NCBI RefSeq assembly: GCF_003334765.1
Contig: NZ_QOWT01000007.1
Length of the DNA stretch: 64,000 nucleotides
Direction: 5' to 3' (one strand)
Source: Escherichia coli
GTDB taxonomy: Bacteria > Pseudomonadota > Gammaproteobacteria > Enterobacterales > Enterobacteriaceae
Made by a program: the position numbers and the translations under genes. The notes under the pieces were generated by a model, which saw nothing but the letters and a program-made list of their open reading frames with translations, was not told where the DNA came from and did not search any database. Below are positions 26,249 to 56,701 of the stretch, one piece after another (position 1 is the first letter of the stretch; each line of letters starts with the position of its first letter).

Positions 26249-27652
26249 GTGTCACTTTCGCTTTGGCAGCAGTGTCTTGCCCGATTGCAGGATGAGTTAC
26301 CAGCCACAGAATTCAGTATGTGGATACGCCCATTGCAGGCGGAACTGAGCGATAACACGCTGGCCCTGTACGCGCCAAACCGTTTTGTCCTCGATTGGGT
26401 ACGGGACAAGTACCTTAATAATATCAATGGACTGCTAACCAGTTTCTGCGGAGCGGATGCCCCACAGCTGCGTTTTGAAGTCGGCACCAAACCGGTGACG
26501 CAAACGCCACAAGCGGCAGTGACGAGCAACGTCGCGGCCCCTGCACAGGTGGCGCAAACGCAGCCGCAACGTGCTGCGCCTTCTACGCGCTCAGGTTGGG
26601 ATAACGTCCCGGCCCCGGCAGAACCGACCTATCGTTCTAACGTAAACGTCAAACACACGTTTGATAACTTCGTTGAAGGTAAATCTAACCAACTGGCGCG
26701 CGCGGCGGCTCGCCAGGTGGCGGATAACCCTGGCGGTGCCTATAACCCGTTGTTCCTTTATGGCGGCACGGGTCTGGGTAAAACTCACCTGCTGCATGCG
26801 GTGGGTAACGGCATTATGGCGCGCAAGCCGAATGCCAAAGTGGTTTATATGCACTCCGAGCGCTTTGTTCAGGACATGGTTAAAGCCCTGCAAAACAACG
26901 CGATCGAAGAGTTTAAACGCTACTACCGTTCCGTAGATGCACTGCTGATCGACGATATTCAGTTTTTTGCTAATAAAGAACGATCTCAGGAAGAGTTTTT
27001 CCACACCTTCAACGCCCTGCTGGAAGGTAATCAACAGATCATTCTCACCTCGGATCGCTATCCGAAAGAGATCAACGGCGTTGAGGATCGTTTGAAATCC
27101 CGCTTCGGTTGGGGACTGACTGTGGCGATCGAACCGCCAGAGCTGGAAACCCGTGTGGCGATCCTGATGAAAAAGGCCGACGAAAACGACATTCGTTTGC
27201 CGGGCGAAGTGGCGTTCTTTATCGCCAAGCGTCTACGATCTAACGTACGTGAGCTGGAAGGGGCGCTGAACCGCGTCATTGCCAATGCCAACTTTACCGG
27301 ACGGGCGATCACCATCGACTTCGTGCGTGAGGCGCTGCGCGACTTGCTGGCATTGCAGGAAAAACTGGTCACCATCGACAATATTCAGAAGACGGTGGCG
27401 GAGTACTACAAGATCAAAGTCGCGGATCTCCTTTCCAAGCGTCGATCCCGCTCGGTGGCGCGTCCGCGCCAGATGGCGATGGCGCTGGCGAAAGAGCTGA
27501 CTAACCACAGTCTGCCGGAGATTGGCGATGCGTTTGGTGGCCGTGACCACACGACGGTGCTTCATGCCTGCCGTAAGATCGAGCAGTTGCGTGAAGAGAG
27601 CCACGATATCAAAGAAGATTTTTCAAATTTAATCAGAACATTGTCATCGTAA
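26249..27652 (+). CDS. dnaA: chromosomal replication initiator DnaA
   Basis: 467-aa product from GTG at 26249 ([14 protein letters not shown]...); AAA+ Walker [12 protein letters not shown]; track start 26237 is an upstream extension. Confidence 0.95.
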
Positions 27653-32293: not shown

Positions 32294-32393
32294 TGCCTGA
32301 TGCGCTACGCTTATCAGGCCTACGAAAATCTTGCAATGTATTGAATTTTCATGATTTTGTAGGCCGGATAAGGCGTTCACGCCGCATCCGGCA
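32294..32393. repeat. BIME: two inverted REP units flanking an AT-rich spacer
   Basis: tgcctgatgcgctacgcttatcaggcctac (32294-32323) and gtaggccggataaggcgttcacgccgcatccggca (32359-32393) in opposite orientation. Confidence 0.6.
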
Positions 32394-42250: not shown

Positions 42251-42424
42251 AATAAATTCATCTGTTGATCGTGGGTGTTGGCCTGATGAGTTATAGCGAT
42301 CCCTTGCTGAAAATAACATCATCATTACGTCGCACTGTGGCGGCTATCGCACTTTAACGTTTCGTGCTGCCCCCTCAGTCTATGCAATAGACCATAAACT
42401 GCAAAAAAAAGTCCGCTGATAAGG

Positions 42425-42455
42425 CTTGAAAAGTTCATTTCCAGACCCATTTTTA
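42425..42455 (+). promoter_or_regulatory. sigma32 heat-shock promoter of ibpA
   Basis: cttgaaa (42425-42431), 14-nt spacer, cccatttt (42446-42453), matching sigma32 -35/-10 consensus. Confidence 0.6.
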
Positions 42456-42555
42456 CATCGTAGCCGATGAGGACGCGCCTGATGGGTGTTCTGGCTACCT
42501 GACCTGTCCATTGTGGAAGGTCTTACATTCTCGCTGATTTCAGGAGCTATTGATT

Positions 42556-42969
42556 ATGCGTAACTTTGATTTATCCCCGCTTTACCGTTCTGCTATTGGA
42601 TTTGACCGTTTGTTTAACCACTTAGAAAACAACCAGAGCCAGAGTAATGGCGGCTACCCTCCGTATAACGTTGAACTGGTAGACGAAAACCATTACCGCA
42701 TTGCTATCGCTGTGGCTGGTTTTGCTGAGAGCGAACTGGAAATTACCGCCCAGGATAATCTGCTGGTGGTGAAAGGTGCTCACGCCGACGAACAAAAAGA
42801 GCGCACCTATCTGTACCAGGGCATCGCTGAACGCAACTTTGAACGCAAATTCCAGTTAGCTGAGAACATTCATGTTCGTGGTGCTAACCTGGTAAATGGT
42901 TTGCTGTATATCGATCTCGAACGCGTGATTCCGGAAGCGAAAAAACCGCGCCGTATCGAAATCAACTAA
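42556..42969 (+). CDS. ibpA: small heat-shock protein IbpA
   Basis: 137-aa product [19 protein letters not shown]..., alpha-crystallin domain. Confidence 0.94.
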
Positions 42970-43080
42970 TTCCCTAAGGCCGCCTGGCGCGGCCTGACAT
43001 CTCCATGCTCGCCGTCAGGGAGCATATGCGAATCTTCGGATTTGCAGGTACTTACTCGCTTCTTAGAAGGAGAAATGACT

Positions 43081-43509
43081 ATGCGTAACTTCGATTTATC
43101 CCCACTGATGCGTCAATGGATCGGTTTTGACAAACTGGCCAACGCACTGCAAAACGCCGGTGAAAGCCAGAGCTTCCCGCCGTACAACATTGAGAAAAGC
43201 GACGATAACCACTACCGCATTACCCTTGCGCTGGCAGGTTTCCGTCAGGAAGATTTAGAGATTCAACTGGAAGGTACGCGCCTGAGCGTAAAAGGCACGC
43301 CGGAGCAGCCAAAAGAAGAGAAAAAATGGCTGCATCAAGGGCTTATGAATCAGCCATTTAGCCTGAGCTTTACGCTGGCTGAAAATATGGAAGTCTCTGG
43401 CGCAACCTTCGTAAACGGTTTACTGCATATTGATTTAATTCGTAATGAGCCTGAACCCATCGCAGCGCAGCGTATCGCTATCAGCGAACGTCCCGCGTTA
43501 AATAGCTAA
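43081..43509 (+). CDS. ibpB: small heat-shock protein IbpB
   Basis: 142-aa product [19 protein letters not shown]..., paralog of ibpA. Confidence 0.94.
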
Positions 43510-43524
43510 CTAGCTATTCTCTTT

Positions 43525-43553
43525 GCCCCGCCATTCTGGTGGGGCTTTTTTTG
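43525..43553 (+). terminator. Rho-independent terminator downstream of ibpB
   Basis: gccccgcca / tggtggggc hairpin followed by TTTTTTT. Confidence 0.7.
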
Positions 43554-43704
43554 TCTTACTTACTCAACAATGCGTTAAATTTCGACTGTTTAAGATATTT
43601 CGGCACGTTCTTTCCCGTGATAATGTGCGCTATAAGGCAAATCTGCTTCACCGATTCAGCCATAATCCGTAGCAATTAAAATGTTATCTCAAGAGAAATG
43701 GACG

Positions 43705-56560: not shown

Positions 56561-56701
56561 TGCACTAAATACGTCAAAATTCGTGCCGAAATTGCGCGTT
56601 CTGCGCGGAACACGTATACTTTCAGTGTTGACATAATACAGTGTGCTTTGCGGTTACCAGCCGCAGGCGACTGACGAAACCTCGCTCCGGCGGGGTTTTT
56701 T
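56561..56701 (+). ncRNA. istR: IstR antitoxin sRNA (IstR-2 about 140 nt; IstR-1 about 75 nt at roughly 56626-56701)
   Basis: Plus-strand terminator hairpin with T-run ending about 56701; candidate -10 tatact at 56615-56620 for the short form; 20-nt segment 56628-56647 complementary to tisAB mRNA region 56370-56389; ends estimated from published sizes. Confidence 0.55.

Follow-up and report, generated by a model that had tools for sequence, protein, structure and literature searches.

What controls the second gene of a heat-shock unit, and which part of the RNA between the two genes could sense temperature? An initial annotation of the DNA analysed here, a window of 64 kb, pointed to a GC hairpin in the spacer between ibpA and ibpB, described as lying near the second Shine-Dalgarno sequence, and proposed temperature- or processing-dependent control of the second cistron. 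The window is Escherichia coli chromosome and its DNA at ibpAB is 100% identical to annotated E. coli ibpA/ibpB records, which confirms the gene identification. We are highly confident that this is the small heat-shock operon ibpAB of E. coli, controlled at the several levels already known for it. Published work covers control by sigma32, an RNA thermometer 5' of each gene, the processing of the two-gene mRNA and autorepression by IbpA. Thus, a textbook heat-shock unit was recognised correctly from raw sequence, and the finding is correct but ordinary, because the operon, its heat-shock promoter and the two temperature-sensing leaders are well studied. Our additions are small: the conspicuous GC hairpin is a conserved post-stop element and not the sensor, the ibpB leader resembles a diverged duplicate of the ibpA leader, and both leaders have an invariant hairpin apex in common.

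Operon and transcription

The genes and the transcription signals of the operon are located in the window as follows.

42403-42410, + strand: A8 run, ~15 nt upstream of the -35 element, with A positions at least 90% conserved in 80 species
42425-42453, + strand: sigma32-type ibpAB promoter, with -35 CTTGAAA at 42425-42431, a 14-nt spacer and -10 CCCATTTT at 42446-42453
42556-42969, + strand: ibpA coding sequence, 137-aa small heat-shock protein (WP_001243437.1, small heat shock chaperone IbpA)
43081-43509, + strand: ibpB coding sequence, 142-aa small heat-shock protein (WP_001243431.1, small heat shock chaperone IbpB)
43525-43552, + strand: intrinsic terminator of the operon from a terminator scan, a 9-bp GC-rich stem followed by T7

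Promoters of sigma32 (RpoH) have the consensus CTTGAAA at -35 and a CCCCATNT-like sequence at -10, with a spacing of about 13-15 nt. CTTGAAA-N14-CCCATTTT upstream of ibpA satisfies this consensus, and its -10 aligned to CCCCATNT has a single mismatch, the first C. The motif CTTGAAA-N14-CCCATNT has one exact match in the 64-kb window, where ~0.12 would be expected by chance with one mismatch allowed. Among 80 Enterobacteriaceae species the -35 CTTGAAA is invariant except for one A conserved in at least 90%, and the A/T positions of the -10 are invariant or nearly so. The sigma32-type promoter proposed upstream of ibpA is borne out by this uniqueness in the window and by its conservation. In addition, the A8 run may be a UP-element-like sequence. 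The literature describes ibpAB transcription as sigma32-dependent and the operon as a member of the sigma32 regulon. RNA polymerase with sigma32 would start a few bases past the -10 and would transcribe both genes to the terminator.

On the other hand, ibpB might be transcribed mainly alone, from a sigma54 promoter lying within the last part of the ibpA gene (TGGTAAATGGTTTGCT, 42890-42905), and the spacer would then be an ibpB 5' UTR. The site has the GG-N10-GC spacing, with TGGTAA-ATGGT-TTGC present at 42890-42903 compared with TGGCAC-N5-TTGC. It is listed as a known promoter, with a ChIP signal under sigma54 overexpression (PMC2831329), and this is repeated in later introductions. However, published ChIP results disagree, since a genome-wide ChIP-seq study reported only background at ibpB and its authors regarded the site as probably misannotated (PMC4591121). 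The site lies within coding sequence, so its conservation says little, and disruption of ibpA was reported in one study to impair the induction of both transcripts. We therefore regard separate sigma54-driven transcription as improbable and retain transcription of both genes from the sigma32-type promoter. Within the spacer itself, a sigma54 promoter was rejected because inspection by eye found the right spacing nowhere.

Two leaders and their Shine-Dalgarno hairpins

Both genes were said to have long leaders, and this holds: the ibpA leader is ~97-100 nt, a length inferred from the position of the -10, and the ibpA-ibpB spacer is 111 nt, both with conserved hairpins. The ibpA leader folds into three hairpins (I-III) and the spacer into four (S1-S4).

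42460-42498, + strand: ibpA leader hairpin I (SL1), stable, -18.5 kcal/mol at 37 C
42501-42522, + strand: ibpA leader hairpin II (SL2), -9.0 kcal/mol at 37 C, inside the Rfam ROSE_2 match
42530-42546, + strand: ibpA leader hairpin III, putative thermosensor, CUC-G-CUG AUUU CAG-GAG, within the ROSE_2 match
42977-42995, + strand: hairpin S1, the GC hairpin, GGCCGCCTGGCGCGGCC at 42978-42994, with the stem 42977-42983/42989-42995
43005-43025, + strand: hairpin S2, AUGCUC-G-CC GUCA GG-GAGCAU, 96% paired
43027-43046, + strand: hairpin S3, 8-bp stem, 87% paired, both-side changes in 8/8 pairs
43055-43072, + strand: hairpin S4, ROSE-type, CUC-G-CUUC UUA GAAG-GAG, -5.1 kcal/mol at 37 C

Folding of the single sequence gave only modest z-scores for the two leaders (-2.1 and -1.4), and the segment with the post-stop GC hairpin was matched by 99 of 500 shuffles. 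Because these energetics are unremarkable, we relied on covariation. For the ibpA leader, 89% of the cells are paired compared with 29-52% when the partners are slid, and 158 cells show changes on both sides compared with 49 in shuffles, none of 500 shuffles reaching 158. For the spacer, the paired cells amount to 92% against 44-53% (78 species) and the both-side changes to 149 against 56, a number that was again reached by 0 of 500 shuffles. All seven hairpins are supported by covariation. As far as comparison of 78-80 species and the Rfam match can tell, the predicted structures are more than chance.

The ibpA leader matches Rfam ROSE_2 (RF01832) over the full model at 42490-42562, with 100.4 bits against a gathering threshold of 65, and RefSeq annotates a ROSE feature at this leader. 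The likeness to ROSE-like thermometers that had been suggested for ibpA is thus well founded, and the leader is a ROSE-like RNA thermometer as judged by the Rfam criterion and the RefSeq annotation. ROSE-like elements are defined by a position in the 5' UTR of a small heat-shock gene, two to four hairpins and, in the last of them, U(U/C)GCU imperfectly paired with the Shine-Dalgarno sequence (PMC3669281). The ibpA leader agrees with this definition: the last of its three hairpins pairs UCGCU (42531-42535) with the Shine-Dalgarno AGGAG (42542-42546) and leaves one G bulged. This hairpin III does not vary among 80 species, is 99.8% paired and, at -4.6 kcal/mol (37 C), is the least stable of the three. 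Hairpin II is nearly invariant in sequence (CCUGUCCA...UGGAAGG) and 94% paired. The inner helix of hairpin I is 92% paired with both-side changes in 7/9 pairs, and RNAalifold predicted this hairpin independently. The two stable hairpins, followed by the weak one with its bulged G, would hold back ibpA translation, and warming would loosen hairpin III for ribosome binding; an induction of 4-fold between 25 and 42 C is quoted for this thermometer (PMC3669281).

The ibpB Shine-Dalgarno sequence GAAGGAGA (43066-43073) is likewise paired with UCGCU, in hairpin S4. All of its pairs are kept in the 78 species compared (100% paired); 72 of these have UCGCU and six have UUGCU. In the predicted fold, S4 is the sensor-like element that hides the ibpB Shine-Dalgarno sequence and is separate from the GC hairpin. 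By hiding this sequence as in ibpA, S4 would give ibpB its own thermometer and not translational coupling to ibpA. Temperature-dependent translation of ibpB, with structure probing and reporter assays, is reported in later papers, and literature on ibpAB also describes Shine-Dalgarno masking and PNPase-dependent decay. With respect to classification, however, the ibpB leader reached only 15.2 bits (E 5, 43015-43087) against the ROSE_2 threshold of 65 in a permissive-threshold search, and the other ROSE models gave no match there. It is not a member by the Rfam criterion and is covered by no Rfam family.

Folding of the leaders at 30 and 42 C had been proposed as a check. Neither leader is unstructured around its Shine-Dalgarno sequence, which would have counted against the proposal; both sequences lie in conserved hairpins. 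These two hairpins are the weakest in their leaders (-4.6 and -5.1 kcal/mol, compared with -8.4 to -18.5 kcal/mol for the other five at 37 C), and warming from 30 to 42 C costs them about 2 kcal/mol (about 1.8 for ibpA hairpin III). On the other hand, nearest-neighbour folding at 25-50 C gave no clear thermal switch of the ensemble. The unpaired probability of the Shine-Dalgarno sequence barely moves from 30 to 42 C, from 0.37 to 0.38 in ibpA and from 0.19 to 0.22 in ibpB, and hairpin III faces competition from an alternative pairing at 37 C. Taken by itself, thermodynamic prediction can neither establish thermometer function nor refute it.

The GC hairpin downstream of ibpA

Hairpin S1 consists of 7 bp closed by a loop of 5 nt, with a predicted energy of -13.9 kcal/mol at 37 C. 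It is 92.7% paired, with both-side changes in 5/6 pairs (78 species). A hairpin of -8 kcal/mol or stronger within 45 nt of the ibpA stop was found in 72 of 78 species, at a median start of 7 nt past the stop, which is also where S1 starts in E. coli. The GC hairpin noted in the spacer is therefore real, but it is not near the second Shine-Dalgarno sequence, as it ends 71 nt upstream with two further hairpins between.

This distance bears on the reading implied by the initial annotation, in which the GC hairpin itself controls ibpB translation in a temperature-sensitive manner. S1 is certainly the most eye-catching structure of the spacer. However, its predicted stability is still -12.8 kcal/mol at 42 C and -7.1 kcal/mol at 70 C, the two intervening hairpins are conserved, and the ibpB Shine-Dalgarno sequence is paired inside its own invariant hairpin. 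Moreover, S1 is missing in several species (L025, L032, L034) in which S2 and S4 are intact. On these predicted energies, S1 would not melt at physiological temperatures and, being also far from the Shine-Dalgarno sequence, cannot be the temperature-sensitive element; we consider a sensor role extremely improbable. The proposed control of ibpB by temperature is thus supported through the hairpin at 43055-43072 and not through the GC hairpin, and S1 fits the processing/stability half of the proposal better.

Immediately past a stop codon, a stable GC-rich stem-loop that is conserved with compensatory changes could also be a terminator or attenuator that halts most transcripts after ibpA and lowers ibpB expression. 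S1 has the GC-rich stem-loop of an intrinsic terminator but not the directly following T run. In E. coli the downstream sequence has no T run (GACATCTCCA), and in 72 species the next 10 nt contain a median of 2.5 T and at most 5. In addition, the terminator scan gives only 43525-43545, and the literature has the bicistronic transcript made and processed afterwards. S1 as a terminator was rejected for the absent T run, and attenuation after ibpA seems to us an unlikely account of the hairpin. Instead, S1 would most likely shield the ibpA portion of the mRNA at its 3' end after the bicistronic RNA is cut in the spacer; processing of the ibpAB transcript into monocistronic transcripts is described in the literature.

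Shared features of the leaders and known systems

A covariance model, R1, was built from ibpA leaders only. It matched the spacer over its full length with 25.6 bits (E 4e-5). Of 46 sources, 27 were hit with E no higher than 0.0051. All 74 matches in 215 kb are ibpA leaders or the region just downstream of ibpA. Hairpin I is aligned on S2 and hairpin III on S4, and part of the spacer score comes from the shared Shine-Dalgarno sequence and ATGCGT, reflecting the paralogous coding starts. A search of the spacers by nhmmer with an ibpA-leader profile gave 13 marginal matches, with E of 0.016 or worse. The likeness is mostly one of structure, not sequence, and so a covariance model was needed to see it. 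Since R1 finds the ibpB leader as its sole other match, the ibpB leader (S2, S3, S4) looks like a copy of the ibpA leader that has diverged but is still co-linear with it, and we infer an origin by duplication. S3 is variable in sequence and is absent from ~17 spacers of Citrobacter and Kluyvera.

The architecture of S2 is the same as that of the inner part of hairpin I, and its GCCG...GGG.G positions are invariant. The apex common to both consists of a bulged G, a CC/GG clamp and a 4-nt loop, (C/U)GCC-N4-GGG(U/A)G. It is invariant in ~80 species and occurs on the + strand of the window only at 42476 and 43010. IbpA is reported to repress both ibpA and ibpB, and it would bind the structured leaders to add translational repression of both genes. 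In published reporters, mutations that weakened SL1/SL2 and mutations that strengthened them both abolished repression, which would be explained if IbpA recognises the shared apex. The mRNA of rpoH is also reported to be repressed by IbpA, and the apex motif is absent from its 5' part, with one occurrence at +802 as expected by chance. This absence weakens the idea of a general recognition signal for IbpA. We put forward only tentatively, as a doubtful joint reading, that the shared apex is a sequence-specific feature recognised by IbpA oligomers and that S1 fixes the 3' end of processed ibpA mRNA, thereby contributing to the ratio of IbpA to IbpB. The invariant apex could be a starting point for mutational studies of the recognition of target mRNAs by IbpA.

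Intercistronic stem-loops protect the upstream part of processed polycistronic mRNAs from 3' exonucleases, as with the REP elements after malE. S1 is likewise a stable GC-rich hairpin just past the first stop, without a T run, in a transcript reported to be processed. It differs from REP elements in being a single short locus-specific hairpin and not a repeated sequence, and its protective role is putative.

With regard to the thermometers, the ibpA leader is the identical element, without difference, to the ROSE-like thermometer of E. coli ibpA (RF01832, Waldminghaus et al., 2009). The Rfam ROSE_2 model begins in the 3' arm of hairpin I, and thus the conserved hairpin I is not described by the model. 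The ibpB leader is at the same locus as the ibpB thermometer that was reported in the ibpA-ibpB intergenic region together with processing of the ibpAB transcript (Gaubig et al., 2011); hiding of the Shine-Dalgarno sequence by the leader and control by temperature, processing and IbpA are accordingly published. The Pseudomonas ibpA thermometers are described as a stable GC-rich hairpin followed by a weak U(U/C)GCU/Shine-Dalgarno hairpin (PMC3669281). They come from another genus and precede a single small heat-shock gene, whereas there are three hairpins in the E. coli leaders, and the score of Rfam ROSE_3 here is only 20.8 bits. On the other hand, the ibpB leaders of Citrobacter and Kluyvera that lack S3 have a two-hairpin layout like that of Pseudomonas.

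Promoter and leader of ibpA

The ibpAB region (42300-43600) is 100% identical to many complete Escherichia coli chromosomes and occurs as a single copy in 5420 of 5426 genomes. In the RefSeq annotation, ibpA (small heat shock chaperone IbpA) is directly preceded by a ROSE feature and followed by ibpB; yidQ and yidR flank the pair at one end, yidE at the opposite end.

Layout of the ibpAB operon
42556-42969, plus strand: ibpA coding sequence (sequence, RefSeq)
42890-42905, plus strand: TGGTAAATGGTTTGCT, published sigma54 promoter site for ibpB, within ibpA
111 nt: ibpA-ibpB spacer
43081-43509, plus strand: ibpB coding sequence (sequence, RefSeq)
43525-43545, then a T run: single intrinsic terminator downstream of ibpB

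The sigma32-type promoter proposed by the initial annotation lies upstream of ibpA exactly where it was placed, with CTTGAAA at 42425-42431 and, after 14 nt, CCCATTTT at 42446-42453. It is unique in the window (one exact match in 64 kb vs 0.12 expected with one mismatch permitted) and is conserved in the upstream-region alignment of 80 Enterobacteriaceae species, in which CTTGAAA varies only at one A (conserved at 90% or more) and the -10 element shows little or no variation at its A and T positions. Membership of ibpAB in the sigma32 regulon has been published. The divergent yidQ-ibpA intergenic region also holds a run of eight A (42403-42410, plus strand), some 15 nt ahead of the -35 element; it is at least 90% conserved in the 80 species and, judged by its sequence, looks like an UP element. 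With regard to ibpB, a sigma54 promoter within ibpA was reported and served as a ChIP positive control (PMC2831329), but a later genome-wide sigma54 ChIP-seq study found only background signal at this site and its authors considered it misannotated (PMC4591121). The ibpB stop codon is spanned by a perfect 8-nt inverted repeat, AATAGCTA/TAGCTATT (43501-43518, plus strand), just upstream of the operon terminator.

The inferred ibpA leader (from about 42459 to the start codon) folds into three hairpins in ViennaRNA, and Rfam ROSE_2 matches it over the full model at 42490-42562 (100.4 bits vs the gathering score of 65), so that the expected ROSE-like thermometer structure is indeed present at ibpA.

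Hairpins of the ibpA leader (energies at 37 C)
42460-42498, plus strand: HP I, -18.5 kcal/mol
42501-42522, plus strand: HP II, -9.0 kcal/mol
42530-42546, plus strand: HP III, CUC-G-CUG AUUU CAG-GAG, -4.6 kcal/mol

In HP III, by far the weakest, UCGCU (the ROSE signature) is paired to the Shine-Dalgarno sequence AGGAG, leaving one G bulged. Among 80 species, 89% of the pair cells of the leader hold standard pairs vs 29-52% when partners are slid by 1-3 columns, and 158 cells are changed on both sides vs 49 in shuffles, with covariation in the inner helix of HP I and the outer pairs of HP II. HP III never varies among these species, so that what supports it is invariance together with the Rfam model, not covariation. 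An independent RNAalifold prediction also contained HP I and HP III. Elsewhere in the window, Rfam matched istR Hfq-binding antitoxin RNA (full length, 56572-56701, plus strand, 150.1 bits), AsdA, the antisense RNA of dnaA mRNA (full length, 26759-26839, minus strand, 101.9 bits), and the ES036 (CssrF) sRNA (32316-32358, minus strand, 44.8 bits, slightly over the threshold of 37.6).

Hairpins of the ibpA-ibpB spacer

Folding of the spacer gave four hairpins.

Features of the spacer (energies at 37 C)
42977-42995, plus strand: S1, the GC hairpin of the initial annotation, -13.9 kcal/mol
43005-43025, plus strand: S2, -10.1 kcal/mol
43027-43046, plus strand: S3, -8.4 kcal/mol
43055-43072, plus strand: S4, CUC-G-CUUC UUA GAAG-GAG, -5.1 kcal/mol, the weakest of the four
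43066-43073, plus strand: GAAGGAGA, ibpB Shine-Dalgarno sequence

The second Shine-Dalgarno sequence lies upstream of ibpB, masked by S4, which has the same design as HP III (UCGCU and a bulged G facing the Shine-Dalgarno). In 78 species, 92% of the pair cells of the spacer are paired vs 44-53% when slid, and double-change cells number 149 vs 56 in shuffles. S2 is 96% paired with an invariant apex, S3 covaries at 8 of 8 pairs, and S4 is 100% paired and nearly invariant; in six of the 78 species UUGCU replaces UCGCU, and U(U/C)GCU is precisely the variation by which ROSE elements are defined.

The GC hairpin S1 exists as noticed (GGCCGCCTGGCGCGGCC, 42978-42994, with a 7-bp stem and a 5-nt loop), but it is not near the second Shine-Dalgarno: it starts 7 nt past the stop codon of ibpA, and 71 nt separate its end from that sequence. 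At -12.8 kcal/mol at 42 C and still -7.1 at 70 C, it is too stable for the physiological range and too distant to be the temperature sensor. Nor is it a canonical terminator, as the E. coli sequence after it has no T run. A comparable hairpin follows the ibpA stop codon in 72 of 78 species (median 2.5 T in the following 10 nt), at a conserved position starting at a median of 7 nt downstream. S1 is 92.7% paired, with changes on both sides at 5 of 6 pairs; its loop is variable and the stem changes are compensatory. Conserved place, variable loop and compensated stem are typical of an RNA structure maintained for its shape, and S1 is best read as a putative hairpin protecting the 3' end of the ibpA portion of the mRNA. 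Some species that retain S2 and S4 lack S1 (loci L025, L032 and L034).

The spacer varies in other ways. S3 is absent from about 17 Citrobacter and Kluyvera loci (L005, L006, L010, L012, L014, L015, L017, L018, L024, L054-L056, L072 and others), leaving an ibpB leader of two hairpins as in the short Pseudomonas ROSE elements. Enterobacter and Lelliottia spacers (L063, L064, L068, L073, L075, L077, L079) have an extra insert of about 25-30 nt between S3 and S4, which can fold into an additional hairpin (CTGCGCAC...GTGC), and the L008 spacer is 237 nt long. In Kluyvera genomosp. 3 (L026, ~1990-2010) ibpB apparently has a frameshift close to codon 8 and may be a pseudogene or reflect an error in the assembly, and in the E. 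albertii type strain (L002, ~2025-2030) codon 2 of ibpB is CCT (Pro), not CGT (Arg).

Proposed kinship of the two leaders

Rfam did not recognise the ibpB leader (ROSE_2, 15.2 bits, E 5), and a plain sequence profile of the ibpA leaders gave only marginal matches to the spacers. On the other hand, a covariance model built from the 80 ibpA leaders only, comprising HP II, HP III and the inner helix of HP I, recovered every ibpA leader and matched the ibpB leader over its full length in 27 of 46 sources (E <=0.0051), including the spacer of the window (42992-43086, 25.6 bits, E 4e-5). Across both strands of 215 kb the model gave 74 matches, and each of them was an ibpA leader or lay just downstream of ibpA.

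The alignment places S2 onto inner HP I and S4 onto HP III; S3 sits where HP II would be, without resembling it. S2 and HP I have a distinctive apex in common: one bulged G in the 5' arm, two C-G pairs and a loop of 4 nt (HP I ...GC-G-CC-UGAU-GG-GU...; S2 ...UC-G-CC-GUCA-GG-GA...), and neither alignment shows any change at the GCC...GG(G) positions. On the plus strand of the 64 kb, the strict motif (C/U)GCC-N4-GGG(U/A)G occurs only at 42476-42488 and 43010-43022. The Shine-Dalgarno and ATGCGT, which both leaders have because the coding starts are paralogous, contribute some of the model score on the spacer; the S2-HP I correspondence is independent of these. Most simply, the leader would have been copied along with the gene in the tandem duplication that gave rise to ibpB, and the copy would then have diverged.

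Predicted temperature response, IbpA repression and known thermometers

Both leaders are clearly structured around their Shine-Dalgarno sequences, the opposite of what would have refuted the initial annotation. The folding at two temperatures that it suggested gives a mixed picture. From 30 to 42 C, HP III weakens from -5.6 to -3.8 kcal/mol and S4 from -6.3 to -4.2 kcal/mol, corresponding to a rise of a few tens-fold in the opening equilibrium by arithmetic from these energies, and none of the remaining hairpins of both leaders is weaker than -7.2 kcal/mol at 42 C. The full-length ensemble, by contrast, shows an almost flat probability of an unpaired Shine-Dalgarno over this range (0.37 to 0.38 for ibpA, 0.19 to 0.22 for ibpB); an alternative pairing competes with HP III at 37 C. 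Non-canonical pairs reported for ROSE hairpins are outside the scope of nearest-neighbour models, and folding thus neither confirms nor refutes the thermometer. Overall, the initial observation stands and the temperature- or processing-dependent control suggested for ibpB is supported; the single point to correct is that the highlighted GC hairpin is not the sensor.

IbpA oligomers are published to repress translation of ibpA and ibpB via these leaders and to promote PNPase-dependent decay. According to a preprint on IbpA autorepression, repression was lost in both weakened and strengthened versions of SL1/SL2 (HP I and HP II), which suggests that their sequence matters, not stability alone. 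One candidate for what IbpA recognises is the invariant apex that S2 has in common with HP I, though an unlikely one: rpoH mRNA is likewise repressed by IbpA, and the absence of the motif from the 5' part of this mRNA counts against such a role.

Published papers describe the ibpA 5' UTR as a ROSE-like thermometer, whose stable and unstable elements agree with the stabilities of HP I and HP II vs HP III. They also report that ibpA and ibpB each have a thermometer in the 5' UTR, as shown by structure probing and reporter assays, and that the bicistronic ibpAB transcript is processed. The ibpAB system is already known in essentially all respects raised by the initial annotation.
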